Assembly (NCBI GenBank): GCA_029552065.1 | Contig: JAKPEG010000068.1 | Coordinates: 3,033-67,032, forward strand | Direction of reading: 5' to 3' | Source of the DNA: Actinomycetes bacterium | GTDB lineage: Bacteria > Actinomycetota > Actinomycetes > Actinomycetales > Dermatophilaceae | DNA length: 64,000 bases | Part shown: one piece after another, positions 7,484 through 64,000 of the stretch | Position numbering within the stretch: position 1 is the stretch's first letter | How the letters are laid out: every line of letters begins with the position of its first letter | Program-made: the position numbers and the translations under genes | Notes under the pieces: model-generated | Told to the model about the DNA's origin: nothing | The model's database searches: none | Seen by the model: the letters and a program-made list of their open reading frames with translations, nothing else

Positions 7484-7602
7484 GCGGTGATCTCTCCTTG
7501 TCGACCTTCGACACCGACCCCCACATCATCTCTCGCCCCTGGGGGTCCGCTGGGCGGATGCTGTGTGGAACCTGTGCGTGCCGGGTGGGTCACACTGGTC
7601 CG

Positions 7603-8010: not shown

Positions 8011-8028
8011 TTCCGGCCCACGGGTAGC

Positions 8029-14685: not shown

Positions 14686-14811
14686 CGCGCCATCCTCCCA
14701 GAGTGACGAATCAGGGCGACACGCCCCCACCCGGCCCGGATAGGCTTGGCCCCGTCACGCGTATGCGTGGGGGTGCCGGACCGCCCGGCCGACGAGCATG
14801 AGGTGAGACGG

Positions 14812-44515: not shown

Positions 44516-44537
44516 GGGTCCTCCTTCGGCGACGACC

Positions 44538-48404: not shown

Positions 48405-49285
48405 GCGGTTGCTCCGCGTCGGAACAGGCCCTGGGGGCGCACGGCGAGGATCACGAGGAACAGGACAAGCCCGACGAAGGTGCGGTAGCCGTCGCCGAGG
48501 GTGACCGCCCCGACGGATTGGAGGACACCGAGGGTGAGGCCTCCGGCGAAGGTGCCGTAGACGCTGCCGAGGCCGCCGAGCACGACGATGGTGAAGGCCG
48601 TGAGCAGGTATTCGGTGCCCGAGGTGGGGGTGAACGAGAAGCACAGGGCGATAAGGATGCCGCCGACGGCCGCGAGTCCGGCGGCCAGGGCATAGGTGAG
48701 CCCGTGGACGCGGCCGACCGCGACGCCGACGATCGACGCGGCGAGCGGGTCCTCGGCGCTCGCCCGCAGCTGCCGGCCGAAGGACGTGCGGGTCATCACG
48801 AGATAGACGGCAGTCGTGACAAGCAGGGAGATGAGGAAGCCGACGAGGTAGATCGTGGGGATCGCATAGCCGGCCAGGGAGATCGCCGTGCGCGTGTAGG
48901 GCCGGTCCAGCGATCGTGTGTCGCCGGTGAAGACCCGGATGAAGAGGTTCTGCAGGATGATCGAGAGCGCGAAGGCGGTGAGCAGCGGCCCCTCCTCGCC
49001 GCCGCGGGCCAGGGGGGCCAGCAGCGTGCGATGGAGCGGATATCCCACGGCCGCCACGACGAGGAAGACGAGGGGGAGGGCGAGCAGGGGGTCGAGTCCC
49101 CACGCGCTGAGGGCGACAAAGCCGAGATAGGAGCCGAGGACCACGAGTTCGCCGTGGACGAGGTTGACCAGGCGCATCACCCCGAGCACGAGCGAGAGCC
49201 CCAGGGCGCCGCAGGCATAGAGCCCTCCGAGCAGGACGCCGGAGATGAGGGCTTGCAGCAGGGCGTGCGGGTCTGGCAGCGTCAT
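48401..49285 (-). CDS. branched-chain-amino-acid-type ABC permease (LivH-like)
   Basis: 294 aa, polytopic (LVNLVHGELVVLGSYLGF...). Confidence 0.87.
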   Translation of the reverse strand: MTLPDPHALLQALISGVLLGGLYACGALGLSLVLGVMRLVNLVHGELVVLGSYLGFVALSAWGLDPLLALPLVFLVVAAVGYPLHRTLLAPLARGGEEGPLLTAFALSIILQNLFIRVFTGDTRSLDRPYTRTAISLAGYAIPTIYLVGFLISLLVTTAVYLVMTRTSFGRQLRASAEDPLAASIVGVAVGRVHGLTYALAAGLAAVGGILIALCFSFTPTSGTEYLLTAFTIVVLGGLGSVYGTFAGGLTLGVLQSVGAVTLGDGYRTFVGLVLFLVILAVRPQGLFRRGATA

Positions 49286-49323
49286 GGCGGTCCTCGGCTC
49301 CTTCCCTCAATGCGCGTGTCTGG

Positions 49324-50568
49324 TCACTTGGCCGGCATGGGGAAGAGCACCGAACCGGTGGCGCGGTCCTTGGGGTAGACCATGACCGGCTTGCCGCCCT
49401 GCCACTGGGAGTTGACCACCGAGATCTTCGCCGTGTGGTCGGCGGCGAACTTCACCGGTCCGACGGGGTATTCCTTGTCGGTCTTGGCGATGGCCGCGTT
49501 GACCGCGGTCGCGTCCGTGGATCCGGCGGCCGCGATGGCGTCCATGAGGACCATGGCGGCCGTGTAGGAGTCGGCGATGTGCTGGCTCGAGGTCTTGCCG
49601 GGGTTGTCCTTCTCCCAGGCTGCCTGCAGCTCCTTGGCACCCTTGAAGGGGAAGCTGGGGTCCCAGTAGGCACCGACCATGACGCCGTCGGCGAGAGTGC
49701 CCAGCGCCTCGGCATACTGCACGGGCTCGGCGCCCTTCTCGTTGACCATGACCTTGGGCGTCCAGCCGACGGCGGCCATCTGCTTGCGCAGCGAGATCGC
49801 CTGCGGCGTCACGGAATCGACGAGCAGGATGTCGGCGCCCGAGTCTTTCGCCTTTTGCACTGCCGCCGAGAAGTCGGTGTTGTCGACCGGGAATTCGACG
49901 TTGACCACCACTTCGTAGCCCGACGCGGCGGCGATGGCCGGCCAGATCTCCCGGCCGACCGCCTGGCCGTCCGGCCCGTTGTCGTGCAGGATCGCGACCT
50001 TCTTGTTCGTCGCGAGCCCGAGGCCGCTCATCGTGTCGAAGGAGAGCTTGGACAGCTCCGGGACGGAGAAGAAGATGTCCCAGGCCCAGGTCCACTTCTT
50101 CACCGAGGTGAACACCTCGAGTGGGTTGCAGCCCGCGACGAACGGGATCTTCGACTGGTCGGCGACCAACGCACCGGGGTTGACCAGGTCGGGGGTGCAC
50201 GAGCCGAGCAGGGCGATCGCCTTGTCGCTCGAGATGAGCGTCTTGATGTTCGTCGTCACCTGGTTGGGGTCGGTCTTGTCGTCGACGATCCGAAGGTCGA
50301 CCTTGCGCTTGACCCCGCCGACGCTCAGGCCACCCGCCGCGTTCACCTCGGCTGCGGCGTGGGTGTAGCCCCACTTGAGGAAGCTGCCGAAGCCGGCCAG
50401 CGGTCCGCTGAGCGGGACGCTCGCGCCGATGACGATCGGCTCGCTCGCGGCGGCGCTGCCGCTGCCGGCACCGGTGCTCGAGCTCGGTGGGGCACAGGCC
50501 GAGAGGGCACCGAGGGCGAGGGCGCACGAGGCGACTGCGGCAACGGACACGTTCCTGGTGCGGGTCAT
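49324..50568 (-). CDS. Liv/amide-family ABC substrate-binding lipoprotein
   Basis: 414 aa from ATG 50568, with GGAGAAGG SD. The lipobox is LGALSAC. A type-I periplasmic binding fold is indicated (IVIGASVPLSGPLAGFG...). ATGA overlap with the dehydrogenase stop. Confidence 0.87.
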   Translation of the reverse strand: MTRTRNVSVAAVASCALALGALSACAPPSSSTGAGSGSAAASEPIVIGASVPLSGPLAGFGSFLKWGYTHAAAEVNAAGGLSVGGVKRKVDLRIVDDKTDPNQVTTNIKTLISSDKAIALLGSCTPDLVNPGALVADQSKIPFVAGCNPLEVFTSVKKWTWAWDIFFSVPELSKLSFDTMSGLGLATNKKVAILHDNGPDGQAVGREIWPAIAAASGYEVVVNVEFPVDNTDFSAAVQKAKDSGADILLVDSVTPQAISLRKQMAAVGWTPKVMVNEKGAEPVQYAEALGTLADGVMVGAYWDPSFPFKGAKELQAAWEKDNPGKTSSQHIADSYTAAMVLMDAIAAAGSTDATAVNAAIAKTDKEYPVGPVKFAADHTAKISVVNSQWQGGKPVMVYPKDRATGSVLFPMPAK

Positions 50569-51512
50569 GCCTTCTCCTTCGGGTCTGTTCCGGACTCCGC
50601 CGCGCCCCTGATGGCGCGGTCGGTGAGTTGCGAGCGGACGTGGGCGGCCAGCCGGGCGCCCGCCCTTTCCCGATCCCCCGGCTCCCAGGTGAGGAAGCCG
50701 GAGCCGGACTTGGCCCCGAGCCGACCGGCGGCGACGAGATCGCGCAACAGCGGCGAAGGCCCGGGACGGTGGTCGATGGCGGGCAGCACGGCCTCGTGGA
50801 TCGCGAGGGTGAGGTCGAGGCCGACGAAGTCGGCGTTCTCGAGCGGCCCCATCTCGGCCAGGCGCAGCCCGATCGTGTTGCGCACGACGAGGTCGACGGT
50901 CTCGGCGTCGGCGATGCCCTCGGCGACGATCGCGATGGCCTCGCGCCAGAGGGCGTGTTGCATCCGGTTGCCGACGAAGCCGGGAACGTCGCGTTCGACC
51001 CGGACCGCGAGTTTGCCCAGACTGCAGAGCAATTGGACCGTCGTATCCATGGTCGTGGTCGACGTGTGGTGGCCGCGGACGACCTCGACGACCGGGATGA
51101 GACCGGGCGGGTTCCACCAGTGGGTGCCGACGACCCGCTCGGGTCGGGCGACCTGGGCGGCGATCGCCGTGACCGGCAGCACCGAGGTGTTCGTGGCCAG
51201 GATCGTCTCGGAGTCGGCGGCGGCGAGCTCGTGGAAGACCGCCTGTTTGACGGACAGGTCCTCCCGGACCGCCTCGGTGACGAAGGCCGCGCCGGCGGCG
51301 ACCTCGGCGAGCGAGCCGACGGGGCGCACGTGCGGGGCATACTCGGCGAGGGAGGCGACCGCCTCGGCGAGGGTCGCCTCGGAGACGTCGAAGAGCCGCA
51401 CCGAATGTCCGCCGCCGGCAAAGACGGCGGCGAGGGCGCGACCCATGAGACCGGCGCCGACGACGCCGACGGTGAGCGCGCCGGGTGAGGCGCCGGCCGG
51501 GATGGTCAGCAC
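50565..51512 (-). CDS. 3-hydroxyacyl-CoA dehydrogenase family protein (carnitine-dehydrogenase-like)
   Basis: 315 aa from GTG 51512. The Rossmann motif is VGVVGAGLMGRALAAVFAGGGHSVRLFD, followed by NTS, HWWNPP and PGFVGNRMQ motifs. It overlaps the SDR stop. Confidence 0.84.
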   Translation of the reverse strand: MLTIPAGASPGALTVGVVGAGLMGRALAAVFAGGGHSVRLFDVSEATLAEAVASLAEYAPHVRPVGSLAEVAAGAAFVTEAVREDLSVKQAVFHELAAADSETILATNTSVLPVTAIAAQVARPERVVGTHWWNPPGLIPVVEVVRGHHTSTTTMDTTVQLLCSLGKLAVRVERDVPGFVGNRMQHALWREAIAIVAEGIADAETVDLVVRNTIGLRLAEMGPLENADFVGLDLTLAIHEAVLPAIDHRPGPSPLLRDLVAAGRLGAKSGSGFLTWEPGDRERAGARLAAHVRSQLTDRAIRGAAESGTDPKEKA

Positions 51513-52342
51513 GCGGTGTAGCCGCCGTCGAGATAGAGCACCTGGCCGGTCATGAACGACGAGGCGTCGGAGAGCAGGTAGACGAGCGTGCCGGCGAAGT
51601 CGTCGGGTTCGGCGAACCGGCCGAGCGGGATCCGCGCGAACATTGCCTGCCGGACGGCCGTGCCGCGCTCGTCGTCGGCGAACATCCAGGCGGTGAGGTC
51701 GGAGCGAAAAACGGTGGGCGCCAAGGCATTCACCCGGATGCCCGCCGAACCCCATTCGGCGGCAAGGGTCTTGGCGAGCAGGTCGACGGCGGCCTTCGAC
51801 GGGCAGTATGCCGTGTAGCCGGCCGGGTGCCCGAGGCGCCCTCGCGTCGAGGAGACGAGCACGAGGCTGCCGCCGGTGCCCTGGTCGAGCCAGGCGCGTC
51901 CGGCCGCCTGGGCAACGAGCCAGGAGCCGCGGACGTTGGCGTCCATCACCTGCTCGAAGGTGTCGACCGGCATGTCGACGATCGGGGCGGTCTTGTTGAT
52001 GCCGGCCGCGACGAGGACTCCCCAGAGGGGGCCGTCGGCGCAGGCCGCGGCGACCATTGCGCTCGCGTCTTCCGGGGTGTCCGGACGCCGGGGCACGGTG
52101 GTCACCCGGGTGAGCGGACGCAGCTCCTGCGCGAGCGCTTCGAGGGCGTCGGTGCTGCTGCCCGTGAGGGTGAGGACGGCGCCTTCCTCGGCGAGGGCAC
52201 GGGCGCCGGCGGCACCGAGCGCACCCGTGGCCCCGACGACGAGAACCGAGCGCCCGGAGACGTCGAATCGGTTGCGCCGCAAGCTGGTTGGGGTGGGCGA
52301 GGAGTTGGGCGAAATGTCCACGTTGGGCTCCTGATTCCGCAT
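51506..52342 (-). CDS. SDR family oxidoreductase
   Basis: 278 aa from ATG 52342 (an alternative at 52393 has poor GC3). It has VLVVGATGALG, NAAG-like AAGIN and catalytic YCPSK. It is the first gene of the operon. Confidence 0.84.
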   Translation of the reverse strand: MRNQEPNVDISPNSSPTPTSLRRNRFDVSGRSVLVVGATGALGAAGARALAEEGAVLTLTGSSTDALEALAQELRPLTRVTTVPRRPDTPEDASAMVAAACADGPLWGVLVAAGINKTAPIVDMPVDTFEQVMDANVRGSWLVAQAAGRAWLDQGTGGSLVLVSSTRGRLGHPAGYTAYCPSKAAVDLLAKTLAAEWGSAGIRVNALAPTVFRSDLTAWMFADDERGTAVRQAMFARIPLGRFAEPDDFAGTLVYLLSDASSFMTGQVLYLDGGYTAC

Positions 52343-52456
52343 GGCGGGAACATTGTCCCGCGATGCGGTTGAGAGTAGAGTGGTCGCCGTCACACGTCAA
52401 GAGCCATCGGAGGCGACGTGCAGGTCCGGTGGCCGGTCGAGCAGGAGGGTCGGGCC

Positions 52457-53281
52457 ATGCGGATCGTCGTCATCGGGGACACGGGAATGAGCGGATCGGC
52501 GATCGCGGCCGAGTTGATCCGCCGGGGCCACGAGGTCACCGGGCTGTCTTCCGGTCGCAGCGGTGCACCGGCCCCCGAAGGGGTCGAACACCGGGACGTC
52601 GACGTCTTCGACGATCGCGCACTGCGCTCGGCGATCGCGGGGCACGATGCCCTTGTCTCGGCCTACTCCGGGGGCCACGGGCTCGAGGTCGACGTCTACT
52701 ACCGACACGCTGAGGGGACGCGGCGGATGATCAAAGCGGTCCGCGAGGCGCAGGTGCCCTACTTCCTGTGCATCGGCGGCGCGGCGTCGCTGCTCACCAA
52801 ACCGGGCGTGCAGTTCCTCGAGGACGAGCGGTGGCCGCGGTGGTTCTACGGCACCCAGCCACCGCTGCACCAGCGGTGGCTCGGCGACCTCATCCCGGCC
52901 CAGATCTTCCACGACTCGGCCGATCGCAAGGAGGCCGGCGTCGTGCCGCGCGGCGGGTCCGACCCGATCCTGGAGGAGCAGGTGAAGGACTGGGTGCACG
53001 TGCCCCTGCTCGAAGGCTGCCGTGTGGCGCTGGACCTGTTCGAGGGTCGCACGGACTTCCGCTGGTCGTTCCTGTCCCCGCCGTGGATGTTCCGCCCCGG
53101 ACCTGGCACCGGCTCCTACGAGCTGGGTGTCGACTACATGATCTTCGACGAGGGCATCCCCGCGGGGATCGACCTGCCCGACCTCGTGCTCGCGGTATGC
53201 GACGAAACCGAGAACCAGGTGCTCGTGCACAAGCACTGGACCTGCGCGGGTCGGCAGGCGAAGTACGCCGAGGATCTCTGA
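52457..53281 (+). CDS. NAD(P)H-binding (NmrA/atypical SDR-like) protein
   Basis: 274 aa from ATG 52457, with AGGAGG upstream. It starts MRIVVIGDTGMSGSAIAAELIRRGHEV. It is divergent from the SDR operon. Confidence 0.8.
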   Translation: MRIVVIGDTGMSGSAIAAELIRRGHEVTGLSSGRSGAPAPEGVEHRDVDVFDDRALRSAIAGHDALVSAYSGGHGLEVDVYYRHAEGTRRMIKAVREAQVPYFLCIGGAASLLTKPGVQFLEDERWPRWFYGTQPPLHQRWLGDLIPAQIFHDSADRKEAGVVPRGGSDPILEEQVKDWVHVPLLEGCRVALDLFEGRTDFRWSFLSPPWMFRPGPGTGSYELGVDYMIFDEGIPAGIDLPDLVLAVCDETENQVLVHKHWTCAGRQAKYAEDL

Positions 53282-53388
53282 GTCGATCCGGGCCGAGGTG
53301 CGCGGCCGTGGCGGGGAGCACCGCCTCGGTGCGCTATTCGCGGCGCGGTAGCGGGCGGCATACCGGATGGGCGACGTAGGCTCGACCC

Positions 53389-54144
53389 ATGGGTGTGCCC
53401 ACGCCTGCCGACCTCGCTGCCGCCTGGCTGCGGCCGCTCATCTTCCAGAGCCGCGGCACGCGGCTGCCGGCGTCGGAGACCGACGTCGAGCTTGTCGTGT
53501 CGGGGGTGACGCTGCGCGGCTGGGTGACCAACCCCGAGGCGGATCGGGCGCTGGTCTACTTCGGCGGCAACGCCGAGCAGGTGGGGCTCTACCGGGAGAT
53601 CTTCGCCTCGCAATTCCCGCGGCATGCAACCTATTTGCTCGCCTATCGGGGCTATGGCGCCAGCGACGGGCAGCCGTCCGAGAAGGCGCTCGTCGCCGAC
53701 GGGCTCGACATCGTCGACGAGGCAGCGCGGCAGCACCCGGGTGCGCCGGTCGCGGTCGTGGGCCGCAGTCTCGGCAGCGGGGTGGCCGCGCAGGTCGCCG
53801 CTCGCCGCCCGGCCCTGGGGCGGCTCGTGCTCGTCACGCCGTTCGACTCCCTCGCCGCGGTGATCCGCGACGGGATGAACGGTATGCCGATCGGTGGCCT
53901 CGTCGCGGACCGGTTCGACTCCGCCTCGGTCGCCTCCCGGATCGAGATGCCGACCCTCGTCCTGCGCGCCGGGCGCGACGACGTCATCCCGGCGGCCCGC
54001 ACGGCCGCACTCGTCGACGCCCTCCCGCCGCGTCTGGTCACGGTGCGGGATTTCCCCGACGCCGACCACAACTCGTTGTCGGCCGACGCGGCCTATTGGG
54101 CGGCCATCCGGCACTTCCTCGACGAGCCCGGCGAGGGTGGCTGA
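53389..54144 (+). CDS. alpha/beta hydrolase
   Basis: 251 aa. The nucleophile elbow is GRSLGSG, with a later Asp and DADHNS (His) completing the triad. Confidence 0.85.
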   Translation: MGVPTPADLAAAWLRPLIFQSRGTRLPASETDVELVVSGVTLRGWVTNPEADRALVYFGGNAEQVGLYREIFASQFPRHATYLLAYRGYGASDGQPSEKALVADGLDIVDEAARQHPGAPVAVVGRSLGSGVAAQVAARRPALGRLVLVTPFDSLAAVIRDGMNGMPIGGLVADRFDSASVASRIEMPTLVLRAGRDDVIPAARTAALVDALPPRLVTVRDFPDADHNSLSADAAYWAAIRHFLDEPGEGG

Positions 54145-54225
54145 CCAGCTCCCTGCGTCACCGTCGCCGGTCGTGGCGGCGAGCCCGGCCGGCGCGAGGT
54201 CCGACCTGCGCCGAGGGGTCGGGGG

Positions 54226-55461
54226 TCAGGACCTGCTGCCGATGCCCAACTCCATGAGATCGCGCCCGATGACGAGCTTTCCCGAGAAGTGTTTCTTCGC
54301 CGGTGTGAGCCAGTTGTCAGGAGCGAACCCGGGGACGATGTGGGAGAGCACGAGTGTGTCGACCCCGGCCCGCTCGGCGATCTTGCCGCAGTCTTCGGGC
54401 AAGGTGTGTGCGGTCATCAGGTGGTTCATCTGGGCGATGTTGTTGTCGGTCCACGGCTTGGGGTAAAGAGTCTGCACCCATTGTTCGGCGATGACCTCGT
54501 GGACGAGGATGTCGGCGCCCTGCGCGAGGCGGACGAGGTTGTCGCTGGGAGCTGTGTCGCCGGAAAAGACGACCGACCCCTGGTCGGTGTCGAAGCGGAA
54601 GCCGAAGGCGGGCACGATGGGAAAGTGGTCCACCAAGGTGGCGCTCACCTTGACGTAATCGTCCTCGAAGACAGTCCAGGGCTCGATTGTGGGATGCGCA
54701 GCGGTGTTGGGGTGATAGCCGAAGCCGCGAGGGATCGCGATGTCGTGCACGTCGAAGAAGGTGCGCAGACTCGGGTTCCGACCGTCGCGCATCCGGTCGT
54801 TGATGTCCAGCGAGTAGGCCTGGAACAGGTAGTCGGTGGTGTCCACGAGGCCCGGCACCGGGTTCTCGGGATTGTTCACCGGGATGTTCGGCGGCGGCTG
54901 ACCCGGCAGTGTCCAAATCGGCTCCAGCACGTCGTTGCCCTGCTCGTCGGTGCGCCTGCCTGGTCCGTAGACCTGGATCTTCGGCATGCCGGCCGCGCGG
55001 CGGCGCAGACCGTTGGACCAGCCGAGGACGAAGTGGTGGAAGTAGTCGGCGATGTGGTCCGAGTGCAGGTGCGTGACGAACATGCCCCGGGTCTTCTCCT
55101 CGCCCCAGTTGCCCCCCACGCTCTGCAGGTCCGCAGGGACGAGGGCGGCCTGCTTGAAGCGGTGACCTGCGCCGTCGCCGAAGTCGACGAGATAGACCGC
55201 GTCACCGACGACGACTGCGGAGCTGATCCCGACCCGGTCGGTGCCGGGGTACCAGATCGGCCCGCCGGCCGTGCCCAACAGGACCAGCCTGGAGCGGTAA
55301 CCCTTCGCCGCTCCGCTGCCGACGCCTTCGGCCGCAGCTGGAGTGGCTATTGCCGTTCCGCCGGCTGCCGCAGCAGCGGCAGCGACCGTCGTGAGCATGG
55401 CTCGTCGACTGAGGGGCCGTTCCCAGGCCTCACGGGCGGCTTCATCCACGATCTGGCACAT
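54226..55461 (-). CDS. Tat-exported MBL-fold metallo-hydrolase
   Basis: 411 aa. The twin-arginine signal is SRRAMLTTVAAAAAAAGGTAIATPAAA. The HxHxDH motif is THLHSDHIADY. Confidence 0.84.
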   Translation of the reverse strand: MCQIVDEAAREAWERPLSRRAMLTTVAAAAAAAGGTAIATPAAAEGVGSGAAKGYRSRLVLLGTAGGPIWYPGTDRVGISSAVVVGDAVYLVDFGDGAGHRFKQAALVPADLQSVGGNWGEEKTRGMFVTHLHSDHIADYFHHFVLGWSNGLRRRAAGMPKIQVYGPGRRTDEQGNDVLEPIWTLPGQPPPNIPVNNPENPVPGLVDTTDYLFQAYSLDINDRMRDGRNPSLRTFFDVHDIAIPRGFGYHPNTAAHPTIEPWTVFEDDYVKVSATLVDHFPIVPAFGFRFDTDQGSVVFSGDTAPSDNLVRLAQGADILVHEVIAEQWVQTLYPKPWTDNNIAQMNHLMTAHTLPEDCGKIAERAGVDTLVLSHIVPGFAPDNWLTPAKKHFSGKLVIGRDLMELGIGSRS

Positions 55462-55643
55462 CGGCGTCCCTCTCGTCCGGCACGGTCGGGGCCGTCAACG
55501 GTTGGGGACCGTCGTCGGTCGCATTCAGGGTGCTTCCGCACATGCGGATGAGTCAATCGCCCTCGGGTATTGATTCTCTCTGGGAGAAACGGGGCAATTC
55601 GGCACCCCGGGTCCTGCGTCGTGCGAATGGGGTAGCGGGATGC

Positions 55644-56744
55644 TCAGCCCAGCCGGAGTTGGCCTGTGACCGCCCAGAAACGGGCGCGGAGGGCGTGCCG
55701 AGAGGCCTCGTCCACGTCGTAGCTTCCGGTGCGGCTGGTGAGGTCGACGAGCAGGGCCCGGTCCAGGTCGCCGGGAATGGACGGTTCACCCTTGCGCAGG
55801 TCGACCAGGTGTTGCGGGGTCGCGGTGGCCAGCCAGGATTCGACCACCCGCTGGACGACCTGGTCGATGAGCCGGGGCGAGACCGGCTCGTGTTCGTCCG
55901 GTAACGGCACCGCCCCACCATTCGACGGCGAGGCTGCCGAGGGGGCGACGATCTTGGTCGGACGGCGGCTCGCGAGCACCGCCGGAGAGGGGGCGCCTCG
56001 TGCGGCGTCAGCCGAGTCAGAATGCGCGGCAACGAGATCGGGCGACGCCTTGTCGTCCCCGCAGGGCGCTGACGGCTGCCGGAAGTCCGCGGTGGCAGGG
56101 ACCTCCGTTGACGTGTCGGGGCTCACCGGCTCGGGAACCTCGTCTGCGTCCGACGGCTCGGTCACGGTGGCCCGGACGAGTTCGTCTGGGATTGCGGCCG
56201 GACGGACCGAGGAGTCGATCGTCGCGGTGTCGATGAGGACGACCTCGTCGGCGGCCCGCTGCAGGTGACGGGCCACCGACGAGGGGCGGCCCGCGGCATC
56301 CGGCACGGCGAGCACGAGCAGTTGGATCCCGTGACTCTGCGCCTCCTCGACCGCCTCCGTGAGGTCGTCGTCGCCGGAGACCAGGTAGATGAGGTCGACG
56401 ACCCGGTTGCGGCCATGGGTGGCAAGATCGAGACCGATCTTGAGGTCGACGCCCTTCTGCTCGCCCTGGTAGGACGTCCGGCCGAGCCGCAACTTCACGC
56501 GGGGCATGAGGCCGATCGCGTCCTGGCCGGCATCCGGCATACCTCCTGGGCGGGCACCGGCGTCGTACCAGTGGACCCGCAGGAGCGGCAGGCCGCTCTC
56601 CCGCTCGGCCTGGGCGATGAGCCCACGGATGAGGGCGTGGGTGTCGACCTGGACGCCACGGCGCAGCGAGGTGCCGGTCACCCGGGTCGCGGAGGCGGCC
56701 AGCAGGTAGCCGGCGTCGACGAAGATGGCGCAGTGCGGCCGCAT
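55644..56744 (-). CDS. NYN-domain (LabA-like) protein with long C-terminal extension
   Basis: 366 aa. The N-terminal 170 aa (AIFVDAGYLL...GVDLKIGLDL...LVSGDDDLTEAVEEAQSHG) match the PIN-like NYN RNase fold. The remainder is low-complexity plus a conserved-looking C-terminal module. Confidence 0.83.
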   Translation of the reverse strand: MRPHCAIFVDAGYLLAASATRVTGTSLRRGVQVDTHALIRGLIAQAERESGLPLLRVHWYDAGARPGGMPDAGQDAIGLMPRVKLRLGRTSYQGEQKGVDLKIGLDLATHGRNRVVDLIYLVSGDDDLTEAVEEAQSHGIQLLVLAVPDAAGRPSSVARHLQRAADEVVLIDTATIDSSVRPAAIPDELVRATVTEPSDADEVPEPVSPDTSTEVPATADFRQPSAPCGDDKASPDLVAAHSDSADAARGAPSPAVLASRRPTKIVAPSAASPSNGGAVPLPDEHEPVSPRLIDQVVQRVVESWLATATPQHLVDLRKGEPSIPGDLDRALLVDLTSRTGSYDVDEASRHALRARFWAVTGQLRLG

Positions 56745-56795
56745 GCCCTCACTCTCGCACAGCCGCGAAGGCTCGGATCGCGCCTGCGGGCCGCG

Positions 56796-57149
56796 TCAGG
56801 CCAGGTCCAGCACCGGGCGGATGTCGATGTCGTAGGCCGGCAGGATCCGGCACAACTCGATCACCGTCTCGAGGTCCGGGGCCTCGAGCAGATAGAACCC
56901 GCCGATGTGCTCCGCGACCTCGGCGAAGGGCCCGTCGGTCACCGACATCGACCCGCCGCGAGTGCGCAGCGTGGTTGCCGCTGCCCCATCGCCGAGCGCC
57001 TCACCGCCGAGCATGCTCACCCCGTCACGGTCGGCGCAGGCCTGCGCGAAGGCCTCGTGACGCTCCAGCCCAGCGGCCTGCTCCTCGGCCGACAGGTCGT
57101 CCCACAACGGCAGCTCGCCGTAGCCCGCCAGCAACACGAAGTACTTCAT
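56796..57149 (-). CDS. YciI-family protein
   Basis: 117 aa (MKYFVLLAGYGELPLWDDLSAEEQAAGLERHEAF...DGPFAEVAEHIGGFYLLEAPDLE). GGAGAGGA SD. Confidence 0.84.
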   Translation of the reverse strand: MKYFVLLAGYGELPLWDDLSAEEQAAGLERHEAFAQACADRDGVSMLGGEALGDGAAATTLRTRGGSMSVTDGPFAEVAEHIGGFYLLEAPDLETVIELCRILPAYDIDIRPVLDLA

Positions 57150-57229
57150 CGTGGGTCCTCTCCGCGGCCCCGACGGTCGGGGCGACACCATGATGACGGG
57201 CGAGCGGGGCCCGGATCGACAGCCGCGAC

Positions 57230-59782
57230 CTAGAGGCGAGGGTCGACCGGCTCGGATTCGAGCGCCAGCACCGCGAAGACGCGTTGGTGGACCTTCCACA
57301 GCGGCTCGTGGTCGACGAAGCCGACCAGCGCGTCGAGGCCCAGCCCGTGCTCACGCTGGGCGAGCTGACGCTTGCGACCCAGGTGGCGCTGGCGCAACAG
57401 GTCGAGCGAATCGGTGTAGTCCGGCCCGTAGATGATCCGCAGATACTCCCGGCCGCGCACCTTGAGCCCGGGCTGGACCCGGCCTCGGGCGTGCCCGACC
57501 GGCCCGGCCGGCTTGACGACCATGCCCTCGCCGCCTGCCGCGGTGAGCCCCAGCCACCAGGTCACGGCAGCAGCCCGCTCGTCAGGAGAGGCCAGCTCGA
57601 CGAATCGGTGCCGAGTGGGGGTGATGAGCGGGTCGTCGAGGGTCGCCAGCTGGGCCAGGTGCCAGTCGTGCCGCTCGCTCACCGCGAGCGCGCGGCCCTG
57701 CGCGGCCAGGATCTGGAAGGGCGCGAGGGTGATCCCGTCGAGTCCCTCGCTCGGCCGGCAGTATGCCGTGTAGGCGTCGCGGAAGGCCGTCGCGTCGGTG
57801 AGTCGGGTCTGGGTGCGGGCGGTCAGCTCGGCGACGTCGAGACCGCGCCGGCTCGCCTGGTCGAGCGCGTCGAGGGCGGCGGGCAGTGCGTGGCGTGCGG
57901 CCGCACCCACGGAGGCGTACTGGTTCTTGATGAGATCCAGGGCTTTGGCCGACCAGGGCAGCAGCTCGCAGTCCAACACCAGCCAGTCGCTGTCCAGCCG
58001 CTCGAACAACGGGGCGACGGCCCCGCGCAGCCGGTCGACCAAGGGTGCGGTGTCGGCGAAGAAGGGCCGCCCGGTGCGGGTGTAGACCACCCCGGTGCAC
58101 CCGTCGTCGACACCGAAGCGCAGCCGGGCGGTCTCGGGGTCCCGCGCGAGCACGGCGATCGCTCGGGAGCCCATGTGCTTCTCCTCGCACACCACCCGGG
58201 TGAGGCCCCACGCGGCATACTCCTCGAACGCCTGCTCGGGGTGCTCGAGGAAGCCGTCGAGCGACGACGCGGCTGCCGGTGACATGGTCGGCGGCAGGTA
58301 GACGAGCCAGCGCGGGTCCACCGCGAAGCGGCTCATCACCTCGAGCGCGGCTGCGGCGTTGTCCTCGGGGATCTTCACCTTGCCGGCGTGGGTCGTCGTG
58401 AGCCATCGGGTGCCGGCGACGTCGTCGATCGCCAGGACGGACGGCTCGCGTTCGGCGGCCTGGGGAGTGAGGGGCCGGGCCGGTTCGTACCACTGCTGCT
58501 CGGCGGGCACCGAGACGAGCTCGCGCTCGGGGTAGCGCAGCGCGGTGAGCGAGCCGCCGAAGACGGCGCCGGTGTCGAGACAGATGGTGTTGTTGACCCA
58601 TTCCGCACGCGGCACCGGGGTGTGGCCGTAGGCGACGAGGGCGCTGCCGCGGTAGTCGCGTGCCCACGGGTAGCGCACCGGCAGGCCGTAGTCGTCGGTC
58701 TCGCCGGTGGTGTCGCCGTAGAGGGCGAAGGCTCGTACTCGGCCGGAGGAGCGGCCCTGGTAGCTCTCCTTGAGGCCTGCGTGGGCGACGACCAGTCGCC
58801 CGCCGTCCAGCACGTAGTGGCTGATCAGCCCGTCCATGAACGCGAGCGCGGCGTCACGGACGTCGGCCGGCTGCGCCTCGATCTGGGCCAGCGACTCGGC
58901 CAGCCCGTGGGAGACGCGCACCTTGGCGCCCTTGAGCGCGCGGACGAGCTTGACCTCGTGGTTGCCGGAGACGCACAGGGCGGTGCCGGCCGCGACCATG
59001 CCCATGACCAGCCGCAGCACCCCGGGGGTGTCGGGCCCCCGGTCGACGAGGTCGCCGACGAAGACCGCCTGGCGCCCGGCCGGGTGGCTGGCCCCGACGG
59101 CGACCTCTCCGTCGAGCTCGAGCTCCCAGCCGAGGGCGGTGAGCAGGCTGCGCAGCTCGGAGGCGCAGCCGTGGACGTCGCCGATGATGTCGAACGGCCC
59201 GGTCAGCTCGGTGCGGTCGTTCCACGGCCGCTCGCGCTCGATGCGGGCAGCGGCGATCTCCTCGACCCCGCGCAGCACGTGCACCCGGCGGAAGCCCTCC
59301 TTGCCGAGCCGGCGGATCGAGCGGGCCAGGTCGCGGCTCTGCCGGGCCACCACGTGGTCGCCGAAGTCGCGGTCCGGGCGCTGCCGGTTGCGTGCGGTCG
59401 CCACCTGCTCGGGCACGTCGAGGACGATGGCGTCGACGAGCACGTCGTGCGACTTGGCCAGCGCGACGAGCGCCGCCCGCGACTGCTGCTGGACGTTGGT
59501 CGCGTCGACGACGGCCAGGAGCCCGCGGCGCAGTCGGGTGCCGACGATGAAGTGCAGCACGTCGAAGGCGTCGGGGGTCGCCGACTGGTCGTTCTCGTCG
59601 TCCGCGACCAGACCGCGGCAGACGTCGCTCGAGATGACCTCGGTCGGCGCGAAGTGTTCGCGCGCGAAGGTCGACTTGCCGCTGCCGGACACGCCGACCA
59701 GCACGACCAGGCCCCTCGCGGGGATCCGCAGCGGAGGCCGCTCTTCGGGCCGGTCGCTGCTCGCCCGGCTGGTTTCAGACAC
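57230..59782 (-). CDS. pnkp: polynucleotide kinase-phosphatase (bacterial Pnkp: kinase, metallophosphatase, ligase-like adenylyltransferase)
   Basis: 850 aa from GTG 59782, overlapping the hen1 stop by 8 nt. The P-loop kinase is VVLVGVSGSGKSTF. The calcineurin-type phosphatase has GDVHGC...GDLVDRGPD...GNHE...GHTP. The C-terminal domain has the lysine motif EEKHMGSRA. Confidence 0.9.
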   Translation of the reverse strand: MSETSRASSDRPEERPPLRIPARGLVVLVGVSGSGKSTFAREHFAPTEVISSDVCRGLVADDENDQSATPDAFDVLHFIVGTRLRRGLLAVVDATNVQQQSRAALVALAKSHDVLVDAIVLDVPEQVATARNRQRPDRDFGDHVVARQSRDLARSIRRLGKEGFRRVHVLRGVEEIAAARIERERPWNDRTELTGPFDIIGDVHGCASELRSLLTALGWELELDGEVAVGASHPAGRQAVFVGDLVDRGPDTPGVLRLVMGMVAAGTALCVSGNHEVKLVRALKGAKVRVSHGLAESLAQIEAQPADVRDAALAFMDGLISHYVLDGGRLVVAHAGLKESYQGRSSGRVRAFALYGDTTGETDDYGLPVRYPWARDYRGSALVAYGHTPVPRAEWVNNTICLDTGAVFGGSLTALRYPERELVSVPAEQQWYEPARPLTPQAAEREPSVLAIDDVAGTRWLTTTHAGKVKIPEDNAAAALEVMSRFAVDPRWLVYLPPTMSPAAASSLDGFLEHPEQAFEEYAAWGLTRVVCEEKHMGSRAIAVLARDPETARLRFGVDDGCTGVVYTRTGRPFFADTAPLVDRLRGAVAPLFERLDSDWLVLDCELLPWSAKALDLIKNQYASVGAAARHALPAALDALDQASRRGLDVAELTARTQTRLTDATAFRDAYTAYCRPSEGLDGITLAPFQILAAQGRALAVSERHDWHLAQLATLDDPLITPTRHRFVELASPDERAAAVTWWLGLTAAGGEGMVVKPAGPVGHARGRVQPGLKVRGREYLRIIYGPDYTDSLDLLRQRHLGRKRQLAQREHGLGLDALVGFVDHEPLWKVHQRVFAVLALESEPVDPRL

Positions 59783-61172
59783 GGGTGAACACCGCAAGCT
59801 GGGTCGGCGCGCCGAACTCGGGGTCTGCGTCGCCGACGCCGCGCAGCTGCACGGCATACCCGTATGCCGTGGCCACCGCCGCGGTCCAGGCGGCGAACTC
59901 GGCGCGGTCCCACTCGAAGCGGTGGTCGGGGTGGCGCAGGCCGCGCAGGCTCTCGTAGCGGACGTTGTAGTCCCGGTTGGGGGTGGTGACGACGACGGTG
60001 CCTGGAGTGGCGGCACCGAAGACGACCCGTTCGAGGGCGGGCAGGCGGGAGGGGTCGACGTGCTCGATGACCTCCATGAGGACAGCCGCGTCGTAGCCGG
60101 CGAAGCGTGGGTCCTCGTAGGTGAGGGCGCCCTGGAAGAGGGTGACCCGCGCGGTCTGGCGCTCGCTCATCCGGTCAAGGCGGAGGCGCCGGGCGGCATA
60201 CTGCAGGCTGCGGGTCGAGACGTCGCTGCCGGCGATCCGGGTGAAAGCCGGTGTGCCGACAAGGCGCTGGAGGAACTGCCCGGGCCCGCAACCGAGGTCG
60301 ATGACCGAGGCGGCGCCGGCAGCTTCGAGGGCATCGAGGACCGCGTCATGGCGCTGGGCGTTGAGCGGGACGCGTCGCTCCTGAGGCTGCAGCGCCTCCT
60401 CGTCGTCGGCAGGTTCGAGCGCCTCCTCGGTCGCGTCGTCGAGCTCGGCGAGCCGGGCCAGGGCCACGCGGGTGAGAGCGCCGTGCCGGCCGAGGTAGCG
60501 GTGGGTGATGAGGTCGCGGTCGGGGTGGTCGGCGAGCCAACCGCCGCCGGAGCGCAGCAGCTTGTCCACCTCGTCGGGCCCCTGCCAGTAGTGCTTGGAC
60601 TCGTCGAGGACTGGAAGCAGGACGTGCAGCTGGCTGAGCGCGTCGGCCAGGCGGATCGTGCCGGTCAGCTGCAGGTGCACGTAGCGGGACTGGCCCCATT
60701 CCGGGAAGGCGTCGTCAAGGGCGATCGGCTCGGCGTCGACCTGCCAGCCCAGCGGCTCGAAGACCCGCCGGGCGATCTCCGGGCCGCCGCGGCACGGCAG
60801 GACGGGCAGGCGGAGCTGCAGCGGGATCGCGCTGTCGGCCAACTCCTGGCGGGAGGTGCACCGGCCCGACCGCGCGGTGCTGAAGACGTCGGCGAGGGCG
60901 ACCGCGAGCAGGGACGACGCGGCATACGAACGGTCGTTGACGTATTGCGCGAGGCTGAAGTCGGGGGAGGTGCGCGAGCGGGAGCGCGCCATCCGGACCG
61001 GGTCGATCTCGAGCATGAGCGTGGCAATGCAGCGCTCGTCACTCGCCTCGGGGTAGAAAACCGTTGCGACACCGAAGGATTGCGTGAATCGCTGCACGCG
61101 GTCAGGGTGCTTGTGCAGCAGATGACCCAGGTCGGTCGCCGGGGTGTGCGTGGTGGTGATACTGAGCAACAC
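59775..61172 (-). CDS. hen1: bacterial Hen1 3'-terminal RNA ribose 2'-O-methyltransferase
   Basis: 465 aa from GTG 61172 (VLLSITTTHTPATDLGHLLHKHPDRVQ...). The C-terminal SAM-MTase has VIDLGCGPGQF and MEVIEHVD. It is translationally coupled to pnkp. Confidence 0.9.
   Translation of the reverse strand: MLLSITTTHTPATDLGHLLHKHPDRVQRFTQSFGVATVFYPEASDERCIATLMLEIDPVRMARSRSRTSPDFSLAQYVNDRSYAASSLLAVALADVFSTARSGRCTSRQELADSAIPLQLRLPVLPCRGGPEIARRVFEPLGWQVDAEPIALDDAFPEWGQSRYVHLQLTGTIRLADALSQLHVLLPVLDESKHYWQGPDEVDKLLRSGGGWLADHPDRDLITHRYLGRHGALTRVALARLAELDDATEEALEPADDEEALQPQERRVPLNAQRHDAVLDALEAAGAASVIDLGCGPGQFLQRLVGTPAFTRIAGSDVSTRSLQYAARRLRLDRMSERQTARVTLFQGALTYEDPRFAGYDAAVLMEVIEHVDPSRLPALERVVFGAATPGTVVVTTPNRDYNVRYESLRGLRHPDHRFEWDRAEFAAWTAAVATAYGYAVQLRGVGDADPEFGAPTQLAVFTRV
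59851..59870. repeat. perfect palindrome formed by two facing GTATGCCG octamers inside hen1
   Basis: The palindrome is CACGGCATAC-CC-GTATGCCGTG, with 10-nt arms. It encodes ATAYGYAV on the minus strand. Confidence 0.9.
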
Positions 61173-61279
61173 GGGGTCAGTCTGCCCGAGGCGGGTATGC
61201 CGTTTCGCGCCGATTAGCCTGGGCTTTGGGGTCGGGAAATCTGTTCCTGTCGACGCGGGCGGGCGGCTACGGTGCGAGC

Positions 61280-62071
61280 ATGCCCGATCGGCCGAATGTC
61301 GAATACGGCGACCGCGCGGTGGCACTGCCCAACGAGATCCTGCGCTCGGTCGTCGGCAGTGGCGTGCACGGGATCGCGATCGCCGGCACCGACGACCACG
61401 ACGAGATGGGCGTCTACATCGAGCCACCGGCATACGTGCTTGGGGTCGAACGGCATCGTGAGGACTTCATCTGGCGGACCCAGCCCGAGGGGGTGCGCAG
61501 CGGGCATGGCGACACCGACCTGGTGCTCTATTCGCTGCACAAATACCTGCGCCTGGCGGTCAAGGGCAACCCGACGGTGATGATCCCGCTCTTCGCGCCG
61601 GAGGAGTCCTTGGTCGTCGTGACCGAGCTGGGGCGGGAGCTGCGGGCCCTGCGCGCGGCGTTCCTCTCGCAGGTGGCGGTGCAGCGCTTCCTCGGCTATA
61701 TGCACTCCCAGCACGAGCGGATGCTGGGCGGGGGGTCGGGAGGCCGGGCGCCGAACCGGCCCGAGTTGGTCGAGCGATTCGGCTGGGACGTCAAGTACGG
61801 CAGCCACGCGCTGCGGCTGGCCTACCAGGGGCACGAGATCGCCGCCGAGGGCACGCTCACGTTGCCACTGCCCGAGCCGCAGCGTGAGCGGGTGCTCGCG
61901 GTCAAACGCGGCGAGGTGGCTCGTGATGAGGTGTCCGCGGAGATCGCGGACTATGAGGTGCGGGTTCGTCGGGTGCTCGAGACCGGTGCTTCGCCGCTGC
62001 CCGAGGTCGCCGACCTGGACGCCATCTCCGACTGGGCGATCAGTGCGCAGCGCCGACACTGGGGTTGGTAG
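61280..62071 (+). CDS. RlaP-like (DNA-polymerase-beta-superfamily) nucleotidyltransferase, divergent from hen1-pnkp
   Basis: 263 aa from ATG 61280. The sequence GSGVHGIAIAGTDDHDEMGVYIEPP matches the G-S-x-hG...D-x-D NTase motif of the predicted-nucleotidyltransferase family linked to RNA-repair loci. The family call is from memory of that motif and the context. Confidence 0.65.
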   Translation: MPDRPNVEYGDRAVALPNEILRSVVGSGVHGIAIAGTDDHDEMGVYIEPPAYVLGVERHREDFIWRTQPEGVRSGHGDTDLVLYSLHKYLRLAVKGNPTVMIPLFAPEESLVVVTELGRELRALRAAFLSQVAVQRFLGYMHSQHERMLGGGSGGRAPNRPELVERFGWDVKYGSHALRLAYQGHEIAAEGTLTLPLPEPQRERVLAVKRGEVARDEVSAEIADYEVRVRRVLETGASPLPEVADLDAISDWAISAQRRHWGW

Positions 62072-62430
62072 AACCGGGGACCATGACGGGGAGTTGGTGG
62101 GCTGCTCGTCGGCTTTGACTTCCCGTCACACGCAAAGGAGATTGCATGTCATGCAAACTCCAAGCCCGCCGCTGCTGCCGCTGCTGCGGTCGCCTGCGCA
62201 GGCGGGCATCCCTTTCGTTCGTTCGGTCGGATCCGGCGTAGCCGCAACCCTTACGAGAACCCGACTCCGATCAGGCTGGCCCTGACGGGGCGGACGTCGT
62301 GGACGCGTTGAGGGTGGCGGCCGAGGCGCGCAGAGCCGCGTTGGGACTCCTCGACTCTGGGCAGCTCGATCGCTGGATGGAGCGCGGGCCGGTTGGGGAT
62401 CGGTCGTGCTGGGACCGCGCGAACGTCGCG

Positions 62431-62503
62431 TGCCCCCGGCGCGAATCGAACGCGCGACACCCGCTTTAGGAGAGCGGTGCTCTATCCCCTGAGCTACGAG
62501 GGC
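62431..62503 (-). tRNA. tRNA-Arg (anticodon CCU)
   Basis: Minus-strand sequence: GCCCTCGTAGCTCAGGGGATAGAGCACCGCTCTCCTAAAGCGGGTGTCGCGCGTTCGATTCGCGCCGGGGGCA. It has a 7-bp acceptor stem (one G-U), a D-loop AGCTCAGGGGATAGAGC, anticodon loop CUCCUAA and a GTTCGATTC T-loop. CCA is not encoded. Confidence 0.92.
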
Positions 62504-62793
62504 GGGGAGCCCGTATGCCGTGCGCCGGGCCGTCGTCAAGGGTAGCCCGTCGCCGCCTGGTCCCTCACGGCCACGGACAGCCACGGACAGGCCATCGGGC
62601 GGGCCGGCGTCGGCCGAGGAGATGCGGACCGAGACAGGGGGTACGAGAACCTGAGAGTCTGCACCGCCACCCGGTGCACACTCTCAGGAAGTCAGACCCC
62701 CTCATGTCCCCCCGGACCCGCCGCGCGCGGACGCAAGCCCGCAACCGGGCGCGGCGGCTCGGTTCGCGCGCCCGGACTAGTTAGCCTGACCGG

Positions 62794-64000
62794 GTGAGCG
62801 TCGCGGAGGCCATTGCGGGATGGGCTCGGGAGCTGTCGGAGGTCGGCGGCCCCAACACCCTGCTGTGGGCACCCGAGCGGCGCGACGGCTTCCTCGACCT
62901 CTCGACGGCCCATCCCGGCGGGGTCTCGATGCTCCTGGCCGGGCGGCCGACGAGCCTGTCCGACCTCGTCCGCGAGCCGGCGGCCTTCGAGGAGGCGCGC
63001 GAGGTCGCCCGCCGGATCCACGCGGCCGCCGCGGACCTGCTCGCGGAGCGGGGCCTCGTCGCCGGCTTCGTCGCCATCGGCGTCGCGACCTGGGATCCGC
63101 CGCGCGCCCGCGCCGTCGTCGAGGCACCCGTCCTGTTGCGCCCGTGCCGCCTGCGGCCGGTGAGCGCGGCGGAGGCCGACTTCGACCTCGACCTCGGGCC
63201 GACCGTCGAGGTCAACCCGGCGCTGGTCACCTACCTGCGCTCCGTCGCGGGCATCGAGATCGACCCGGTCGCGCTCGCCGGCCTCACCGCGCTGCGCCCG
63301 AACGCAGGTCACGGTTCGCAGGCCGCCGGTTTCGACCCCTACCCCGTGTATGCCGCCCTCGGTCGCCTCTGCGCCGACCTGCCCGGCTTCGCGGTGAGCC
63401 CTCGACTCGTCGTGGGCAGCTACCCCTACGCCAAGCCCGACATGGTGGCCGACGTCGGCGGTCACACGGCCTGGCTGGCCAAGGTCGACGTGGTCGCCGC
63501 GCTCGCCAGCGACCCGGAGGCCACCCGCCGACTTGCCCACGCCCTGCCCGATCCGGTCGCCGACGCCGATCCCGAGCAGGAGCTCACCCCGCTGCCGCTC
63601 GACCCGGTCCAGGCGGCCGCGGTCTCCGACGCACAGGCCGGGCGATCCCACGTCCTCACCGCACCGCTCGGCACCGGCCGCACGCAGACCCTCGCCGCCC
63701 TCGTGGCGGCCGCCGCGTACACCGGCCGGCGCGTCCTCTACGTCACCCCACGCCGCGCTAGCCTCGATGCGCTGGTGGAGCGGCTCGGGCGCCTCGGCCT
63801 GGGCGATCTCGTCCTCGACCTCACCGGCGCGGGAGCGGACCGCAGTGCGGTCGCAGCCGAGCTGAGCATCGCCCTCGAACGGCTGGCCGAGCTCGACGAC
63901 TCCACCCTCGCCCGGCAGGCCGAGCCGGCCGGCCGGGTCGCCCGGGCGACCGAGGCCGCCGAACGTCAGGACGTCCTGGCCGAACACGTCGCCGCCGTGC
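62794..64000 (+). CDS. DUF4011/Upf1-like SF1 helicase family protein (partial; continues past the right edge)
   Basis: Not in the ORF track because there is no stop inside the window. Manual translation from GTG 62794 gives VSVAEAIAGWARELSEVGGPNTLLWAPERRDGFLDLSTAHPGGVSMLLAGRPTSLSDLVREP...SYPYAKPDMVAD...LDPVQAAAVSDAQAGRSHVLTAPLGTGRTQTLAALVAAA. That is 402 uninterrupted codons with very high GC3 and a P-loop-like APLGTGRTQT. Confidence 0.72.
   Translation, partial: MSVAEAIAGWARELSEVGGPNTLLWAPERRDGFLDLSTAHPGGVSMLLAGRPTSLSDLVREPAAFEEAREVARRIHAAAADLLAERGLVAGFVAIGVATWDPPRARAVVEAPVLLRPCRLRPVSAAEADFDLDLGPTVEVNPALVTYLRSVAGIEIDPVALAGLTALRPNAGHGSQAAGFDPYPVYAALGRLCADLPGFAVSPRLVVGSYPYAKPDMVADVGGHTAWLAKVDVVAALASDPEATRRLAHALPDPVADADPEQELTPLPLDPVQAAAVSDAQAGRSHVLTAPLGTGRTQTLAALVAAAAYTGRRVLYVTPRRASLDALVERLGRLGLGDLVLDLTGAGADRSAVAAELSIALERLAELDDSTLARQAEPAGRVARATEAAERQDVLAEHVAAV

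Follow-up and report, generated by a model that had tools for sequence, protein, structure and literature searches.

A Pnkp-Hen1 RNA repair operon with a neighbouring RlaP-family gene in an actinobacterium

Genes at the locus

The window, as we call the whole 64,000-nucleotide (nt) stretch of DNA analysed here (contig JAKPEG010000068.1 of the Dermatophilaceae assembly GCA_029552065.1), carries the genes hen1 and pnkp, which encode homologues of the bacterial RNA repair proteins Hen1 and Pnkp, and, divergently transcribed beside them, a gene for a nucleotidyltransferase of the RlaP family. The GC content is 72% overall, which is actinobacterial, and stays in the range 0.70-0.73 throughout. The central features are the following (aa, amino acids):

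59775..61172, minus strand: hen1, 465 aa, GTG start; N-terminal Hen1_L domain and C-terminal S-adenosylmethionine (SAM) methyltransferase domain (Pfam)
57230..59782, minus strand: pnkp, 850 aa, GTG start; AAA_33, Metallophos and PNKP_ligase domains (Pfam)
59775..59782, minus strand: overlap of the hen1 stop and the pnkp start, GTGTCTGA, 8 nt, read from the sequence
61280..62071 (open reading frame, ORF, from 61226), plus strand: RlaP-family nucleotidyltransferase of the DNA polymerase beta (Pol-beta) type, 263 aa, PF10127

The hen1-pnkp operon

By its sequence, the hen1-pnkp pair is a canonical two-component Pnkp-Hen1 RNA repair operon, with an enzymology presumed to be that of its homologues. 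Hen1 scored 683.8 bits with the NCBIfam equivalog model TIGR04074 (bacter_Hen1; cut-off 340), over model positions 1-462 of 462, and Pnkp scored 1309.8 bits with TIGR04075 (bacter_Pnkp; cut-off 750), over positions 3-851 of 851. In Pfam, the Hen1_L domain was covered in full (model positions 1-242 of 242, E = 3e-114), and the PNKP_ligase domain was full-length (E = 2e-158). The modules of Pnkp follow each other in the order AAA_33 (residues 25-153), Metallophos (196-391) and PNKP_ligase (478-845), and the translation contains the catalytic motifs GVSGSGKST, GDVHG, GDLVDRG, GNHE and GHT. A motif of the EEKHMGSR type holds the adenylylated lysine of Clostridium thermocellum Pnkp. In the window's Pnkp, EEKHMGSR aligned with EQKHMGSR in the ligase domain of C. 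thermocellum (4drf), and each module matched a C. thermocellum structure (ligase, E = 2e-114; phosphatase, E = 1e-98; kinase, E = 1e-50). Hen1 matched the C. thermocellum N-domain (4dqz, E = 5.5e-81) and methyltransferase domain (3jwi, E = 4e-60), and its methyltransferase motifs DLGCG, EVIEH and HRFEW aligned with 3jwi (metal-binding EVIEH/HxxHRFEW). A preliminary description of the window had given the same coordinates for the two genes, with an 8-nt overlap, and had called the kinase, phosphatase and ligase modules of Pnkp intact; the sequence, the equivalog and Pfam models, the motifs and the C. thermocellum matches confirm both statements. An assignment to the Pnkp1-Rnl-Hen1 variant was rejected, since the ligase domain is fused within Pnkp (residues 478-845) and there is no separate-Rnl arrangement.

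On the minus strand, the junction of the two genes reads CGT GTC TGA, with GTGTCTGA shared between them: the GTG start of pnkp is at 59782 and the TGA stop of hen1 at 59777..59775. Because stop and start overlap by 8 nt, the two genes are presumably translationally coupled. The conservation of this arrangement was assessed in a set of hen1-anchored loci, for which 20 Hen1 homologues were aligned and the best 80 matching hen1 loci, each with ±10 kb, were taken from the GTDB collection of one genome per species. All are actinobacterial and include Nocardioidaceae, Streptosporangiaceae, Intrasporangiaceae/Dermatophilaceae, Tsukamurella, Propionibacteriales and others, with Hen1 identities of 60-77%. 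Neighbours were scored by tblastn with the window proteins, down to E <= 0.01, and cross-checked with profile hidden Markov models (HMMs) of RlaP (from 68 sequences) and NYN (from 120) and by phmmer with the YciI protein against six-frame ORFs (for NYN and YciI, see below). By tblastn, hen1 is followed immediately by pnkp in 79 of the 80 loci. The two genes overlap in 76. The overlap is 8 nt long in 47 loci, and lengths of 17, 4 and 11 nt were counted in 15, 11 and three loci, respectively. When the approximately 1,380 called genes of these loci were clustered all against all, the sole universal clusters were Hen1 and Pnkp.

The putative hen1 promoter

A conserved element precedes hen1:

61179..61186, minus strand: -10-like element GGCAGACT, 6 nt upstream of the hen1 GTG

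The pattern GGCA[G/C]ACT was present in all 77 scorable hen1 loci, 6-7 nt ahead of a GTG start that never varies, and the element was also conserved in an alignment of the window with a contig from the Logan collection (L175) and with Tsukamurella conjunctivitidis (L041). Such spacing is typical of leaderless transcripts in actinobacteria and fixes the hen1 start at 61172; GGCAGACT is thus probably the promoter element of a leaderless hen1-pnkp mRNA. From the position of the conserved element, the putative promoter lies inside the 107-nt spacer that hen1 shares with the RlaP gene. A scan of 55300..62800 for consensus sigma-70 promoters and intrinsic terminators found none, and such a scan is uninformative at 72% GC in an actinobacterium. 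We found no description of Pnkp-Hen1 promoters in the literature.

The RlaP-family gene beside hen1

The spacer occupies 61173..61279, and RlaP is transcribed away from it in the direction opposite to hen1. Its product, which the preliminary description had named RlaP and placed at this distance from hen1, was assigned by HMM search to PF10127 (E = 1.4e-27; 97.4 bits against a cut-off of 23), the match being limited to model positions 21-176 of 249. The current Pfam name of this family is "RlaP, RNA repair pathway DNA polymerase beta family". The catalytic motifs GSG (residues 26-28), DDHDE (38-42) and GDTD (77-80) hardly vary among 68 aligned relatives and are the same in all of 22 homologues from the databases. 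The ATG at 61280 is supported as the start by homologues that are mostly 262-263 aa long. A sequence search against PDB chains returned no match. The AlphaFold model had a mean predicted local distance difference test (pLDDT) score of 68, falling below 50 in the nucleotidyltransferase core (residues 1-84), and was built on a shallow alignment of 22 sequences 74-82% identical. A Foldseek search of the PDB with this low-confidence model gave no match at E <= 0.001; the best was 3c18, which is nucleotidyltransferase-like (E = 0.11). By analogy with characterized members of the family (see below), the protein is most likely an optional accessory that would rebuild missing 3' nucleotides before ligation.

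A relative of RlaP was found within 10 kb of hen1 in seven of the 80 loci (≈9%), with tblastn and HMM searches in agreement. Chance would supply at most 0.34 such loci in 80, even with one RlaP in every 5-Mb genome, so that the excess is about 20-fold (P about 6e-8) and persists when just five independent events are counted (P about 3e-5). The linked RlaPs of these seven loci and the window fall into three subfamilies, which are 73-78%, 40-44% and 31% identical to the window protein, and they occur in at least five arrangements:

RlaP divergent from and adjacent to hen1: the window, Tsukamurella conjunctivitidis (L041) and Logan contig L175
RlaP divergent, with a TROVE/Ro60-like gene between: L042, L009 and L174
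RlaP co-directional and directly upstream of hen1: L018
RlaP co-directional and upstream, separated from hen1 by a TROVE gene or AbiE genes: L007 and L012
RlaP downstream of pnkp, with a 4-nt overlap: L056

In the last of these, from Microtetraspora niveoalba, RlaP (14105-14821; 31% identity, PF10127 E = 7e-32) is the third gene of a hen1-pnkp-rlaP operon. Two Tsukamurella species with identical flanks differ by a clean presence or absence of RlaP exactly at the promoter side of hen1. Unlike T. conjunctivitidis (L041), T. ocularis (L050) is naturally devoid of RlaP. The link between RlaP and hen1 in Actinobacteria is thus real but sporadic, and has been assembled independently several times. 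The RlaP of L009, from a Marmoricola metagenome-assembled genome (MAG), is split over two frames, which reflects either a pseudogene or an assembly error.

The clade to which the window RlaP belongs is patchily distributed and 75-83% identical across distant orders (Gordonia, Occultella, Nocardioides, Propionibacteriaceae and Flexivirga), a tighter range than Hen1 shows among its own best matches. Relatives at 42-47% identity were found in 595 phage records, mainly of mycobacteriophages and Gordonia phages. These observations together suggest that the clade has spread horizontally. Members of the clade behave like mobile genes that mostly stand alone and are now and then recruited next to hen1-pnkp.

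Genes downstream of pnkp

Three further genes follow pnkp on the same strand:

56796..57149, minus strand: YCII-family gene (yciI), PF03795 (E = 8e-12), 80 nt downstream of pnkp
55644..56744, minus strand: NYN/LabA-like predicted RNase, PF01936 (E = 1e-9); N-terminal NYN domain, low-complexity linker and conserved C-terminal region
54226..55461, minus strand: metallo-beta-lactamase (MBL)-fold gene, Lactamase_B_2; twin-arginine-like N-terminal signal RRAMLTTVAAAAAAAGG, read by eye

These Pfam matches bear out the NYN and YCII domains named in the preliminary description. The acidic motifs FVDAGY, GEQKGVD and VSGDDDL of the NYN protein are conserved in 120 homologues, and the protein is on that account probably an active nuclease. 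We know of no RNA function of YCII. A homologue of the NYN gene was present in none of the 80 hen1 loci by tblastn or profile HMM, and none of YciI by tblastn (E <= 0.01) or phmmer; both were absent also from the three hen1 loci of the same broad family (L021, L030 and L034). In the clustering of hen1-locus genes, the window's NYN, YciI, MBL-fold and helicase genes (for the helicase, see below) were all singletons.

The NYN gene has more than 1,400 homologues, and the named ones come mostly from Dermatophilaceae/Intrasporangiaceae (Tetrasphaera, Knoellia and Nostocoides). We inspected the surroundings of five orthologues with 52-58% identity, from Nostocoides jenkinsii, Knoellia subterranea, one Dermatophilaceae MAG and two metagenome contigs: YciI, Pnkp, Hen1 and RlaP were all absent within 8-10 kb, and the neighbours were unrelated. 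A 99%-identical NYN gene occurs on contigs from activated-sludge and other metagenomes, with the gene order exactly as in the window. Near-identical gene order was found in several independent metagenomes (L161-L163 and L169-L172, from ENA, JGI and Logan), so the arrangement is stable within the species, and the source organism would therefore be an uncultured but widespread actinobacterium, which its NYN homologues place probably close to Dermatophilaceae/Intrasporangiaceae. The YCII gene was seen at this locus in the same-species contigs only. From this distribution we take NYN and YciI to be species-specific bystanders, not conserved parts of the system.

The MBL-fold protein is probably exported, to judge from its signal, and for this reason a role in RNA processing is unlikely despite its place after the NYN gene. 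The possibility that it is an RNase Z/J-type enzyme was rejected in view of the twin-arginine-like signal, the generic Lactamase_B_2 matches and its occurrence in none of the 80 hen1 loci.

The tRNA-Arg side of the locus

Beyond RlaP lie two more features:

62430..62503, minus strand: tRNA-Arg(CCU), 358 nt from the RlaP stop; ARAGORN (anticodon CCT), Rfam tRNA model 62.4 bits
62794..64000, plus strand: large helicase ORF, from about 62794 to beyond the window end; full length in L169:11515-15462

The tRNA-Arg(CCU) of the preliminary description was recovered by both ARAGORN and Rfam. The label of the adjoining gene as a DUF4011/Upf1-like helicase is weakly supported, since the fragment in the window scored 20.8 bits with DUF4011 and 24.2 bits with AAA_11, both below the Pfam cut-offs. 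In the same-species contigs the full-length helicase has 1315 aa and matches the PADLOC models of the candidate system PDC-S37 (E = 5e-102) and of Hhe (E = 4.5e-52), from which it may be a defence gene. Homologues of the helicase were found in none of the 80 hen1 loci (tblastn, E <= 0.01), and a tRNA-Arg near hen1 was likewise seen in none. An aside of the preliminary description noted the tRNA-Arg as a curiosity and added that some anticodon nucleases, such as colicin D, target this tRNA; a link of that kind is thus without support. An Rfam search of 54000..64000 at E <= 0.1 gave nothing beyond the tRNA.

We considered whether the locus had been integrated recently and rejected this: the 3' end of the tRNA-Arg is not repeated in the window, with up to 3 mismatches allowed, there are no meaningful direct repeats in 44000..64000, and the window has no break in GC. 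It holds no integrase either, and the genes that flank the locus are ordinary metabolic genes.

Several side observations were made in the hen1-anchored loci. A tRNA-Met(CAT) with its 3' end facing hen1 lies 240 nt to 9.6 kb upstream in seven of the 80 (L010, L012, L016, L025, L034, L035 and L039). The cargo between it and hen1 is variable, with AbiEii in L012 (Pfam) and small toxin-antitoxin-like ORFs recognized by eye. This suggests that the tRNA-Met side of hen1 is an insertion hotspot, and the tRNA-Arg of the window is in an equivalent position. In the Marmoricola MAG (L009), a Wadjet-like JetC/JetD pair (1669-7121 and 7164-8446), consisting of an SMC/SbcC-type protein of 1375 aa and a DUF3323/DUF2399 protein, adjoins the RlaP-TROVE-hen1-pnkp cluster. 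An integrase is present in L175, and L042 contains ORFs that resemble insertion sequences (IS) by eye. Pnkp-Hen1 is viewed as a component of conflict systems located in variable regions, and the tRNA-Met, AbiEii, JetC/JetD and integrase genes near hen1 loci fit this view.

A TROVE/Ro60-like gene lies directly upstream of hen1-pnkp in five of the 80 loci and in one Logan contig, and RlaP often adjoins it on the far side:

8046-9641 of L007: TROVE gene
8349-9908 of L009: TROVE gene
7634-9229 of L015: TROVE gene
8343-9902 of L016: TROVE gene
8345-9904 of L042: TROVE gene (Pfam E = 1e-18)
7878-9437 of L174: TROVE gene

In L015, an ORF at 6140-6697 resembles Tpt1/KptA by eye. Neither a Y RNA nor another Rfam family reached the gathering score in seven related loci, which included five of the six that contain a TROVE gene.

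Alternative readings of the neighbourhood

We consider it highly probable that the locus is a two-gene Pnkp-Hen1 operon with RlaP as an optional accessory, and that YciI, NYN, the MBL-fold gene, the tRNA-Arg and the helicase are accidental, species-specific neighbours. Read in this way, it is an ordinary example of a system already described, and its accessory gene is known as well. The preliminary description had proposed a functionally meaningful, RNA-centred neighbourhood, and this did not hold: NYN, YciI, the helicase and the tRNA-Arg recur in none of the 80 hen1 loci. Of the co-conservation that it had made the measure of its proposal, the NYN and YciI part fell and the nucleotidyltransferase part received weak support, from the seven linked hen1 loci set against none among loci collected around RlaP (see below).

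Several observations nevertheless weigh against so narrow a reading. The genes hen1, pnkp, yciI and NYN are co-directional, the spacers after pnkp and yciI measure 80 and 51 nt and lack any terminator-like site, and in this species NYN and YciI may be co-transcribed with hen1-pnkp. Together with the probable activity of the NYN nuclease and the stable order in same-species contigs from several metagenomes, this would favour an extended module, a single unit for RNA damage and repair made up of RlaP, Hen1, Pnkp, YciI and NYN, with the NYN protein as the damaging or end-trimming RNase. We regard such a module as very improbable, given that neither gene accompanies hen1 elsewhere, not even within the same broad family, that the NYN orthologues stand apart from all the other members, and that YCII brings no RNA function with it. 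A more limited version is just as improbable: the transcription unit of hen1-pnkp would have taken in yciI and NYN in this one activated-sludge lineage, giving with RlaP a five-gene damage-response module. In it, NYN may trim or clean ends, or be the cognate toxin, and RlaP may rebuild the ends before the methylating ligation.

A more serious challenge comes from the loci collected around RlaP itself, 80 metagenomic loci with relatives 53-80% identical to the window protein, of which 58 were informative, having at least 1 kb upstream. None of the 58 has hen1 adjacent, and pnkp lies within 8 kb in one of the 80, at a distance of 4 kb. No neighbour cluster recurs in more than five loci. The two nearest genes on either side of RlaP yielded 150 flanking proteins in 118 Pfam families, none of them in more than five proteins, and RNA ligases, RtcB and TROVE are absent from the 25 most frequent RlaP-neighbour Pfam families listed. 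This RlaP clade could therefore be independent of Pnkp-Hen1 and its adjacency here opportunistic: a stand-alone, horizontally mobile nucleotidyltransferase, acting on RNA 3' ends or otherwise, would have landed beside hen1 in a variable region. The close identity of the clade across orders, the phage homologues and the integrases near some copies all agree with such an origin. Coincidence would not readily explain, however, why hen1 loci carry RlaP about 20 times more often than the upper bound of chance, or why three subfamilies in at least five arrangements, one of them overlapping pnkp by 4 nt, should have arrived at the same gene pair; an association of RlaP with diverse RNA ligases has also been published, as far as the citing literature conveys it. 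We consider a purely coincidental adjacency somewhat unlikely. Also unlikely, in our estimate, is that the tRNA-Arg stretch is the remnant of a defence or mobile island, in which Pnkp-Hen1 and RlaP would be counter-measures in conflicts with phages or toxins. The tRNA with its 3' end towards hen1, here and as tRNA-Met in seven loci with variable cargo, the AbiEii (L012), Wadjet-like (L009) and integrase (L175) genes of other loci and the defence-model matches of the full-length helicase all point in that direction, but the window itself shows no integrase, no tRNA 3'-end repeat and no compositional break, and is flanked by ordinary metabolic genes. The reading that we prefer thus remains that of a two-gene operon with an optional RlaP.

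Proposed function

By homology with the enzymes of Clostridium thermocellum and Anabaena, studied in the Shuman and Huang laboratories, the two proteins would assemble into a Pnkp2-Hen1(2) complex. The substrate would be RNA cut by ribotoxins, typically in tRNA anticodon loops, with 2',3'-cyclic-phosphate and 5'-OH ends. Where RlaP is present, it would first extend, by one or two nucleotides, a 3'-OH end that a nucleotide-excising toxin had shortened. The phosphatase module of Pnkp would take off the 2',3'-cyclic phosphate and its kinase module would phosphorylate the 5'-OH. Hen1 would then methylate the 2'-OH of the 3'-terminal nucleotide, and the ligase module, which is expected to need the N-terminal domain of Hen1, would seal the nick. 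The resulting 2'-O-methyl junction should resist repeat cleavage at the same site. An end extended by RlaP would be a usable substrate for the 5'-phosphate ligase of Pnkp.

The place of RlaP in this scheme follows earlier work. RlaP was named by Burroughs and Aravind in 2016 and linked by them to RNA-ligase operons, with the prediction that, ahead of ligation, it puts back nucleotides that RloC and similar nucleases have removed (both as cited in PMC12776372 and PMC7824862). A preprint of December 2025 reported that two Pseudomonas RlaPs add one or two nucleoside monophosphates (NMPs) to RNA 3'-OH ends, prefer damaged RNA and are needed for restored aminoacylation of over-damaged tRNA (PMC12776372). 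The question whether the nucleotidyltransferase contributes by 3'-end repair, raised in the preliminary description, has thus largely been asked and answered elsewhere, by the 2016 prediction, as the citing papers give it, and by the Pseudomonas biochemistry. Some operons pair RlaP with a 5'-phosphate ligase, and the chemistry of such ligases suits a 3'-OH product directly (PMC12776372).

The locus adds one more instance of a system for which there are curated equivalog models, crystal structures and reconstitution in vitro. The usually stand-alone habit of this RlaP clade calls for caution in assigning a role in RNA repair from PF10127 membership alone. A Pnkp-type (5'-phosphate) ligase is at the same time the partner with which the 3'-OH product of RlaP makes immediate chemical sense. 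Because of this fit, the actinobacterial RlaP and Pnkp-Hen1 trio would be a cleaner in vitro system than the RtcB operons studied so far for the proposed role of RlaP against "smart", nucleotide-excising ribotoxins.

Comparison with known systems

The Pnkp-Hen1 systems of C. thermocellum and Anabaena variabilis (PMC3675462; 4drf, 4j6o, 4gp6 and 3jwi) have the same two genes as the window, with the same domain order and with hen1 upstream. The solved domains of the C. thermocellum proteins all match the window proteins, with E values from 1e-50 to 1e-114. There is no essential difference; the window copy is a high-GC actinobacterial one, with an 8-nt overlap, a probable leaderless GTG start and RlaP alongside.

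With the three-protein Pnkp1-Rnl-Hen1 complex (PMC4411300) the operon shares the logic of healing, methylating and sealing. The ligase of that complex is the separate protein Rnl (PMC4411300), whereas in the window it is fused within Pnkp, as in the classical two-component type. End healing and sealing of anticodon-nuclease damage are also common to the Pnkp/Rnl1 system of phage T4, the genome of which has a PF10127 member, NrdC.11. In T4, however, there is no Hen1 methylation step, the kinase-phosphatase and the ligase are separate proteins, and the context is viral.

The two Pseudomonas proteins, PfRlaP and PaRlaP, sit within RtcB-RlaP-RtcA operons (PMC12776372). The window RlaP has in common with them its membership of PF10127, the Pol-beta motifs, the adjacency to the gene of an RNA repair ligase and the predicted role. 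Unlike them, it is divergent from the operon instead of lying inside it, and its clade is mostly stand-alone. For RtcB as a partner of RlaP, an incompatibility between 3'-OH and 3'-phosphate ends has been discussed (PMC12776372); in the window, the predicted partner is the 5'-phosphate ligase Pnkp, with which this incompatibility would be avoided.

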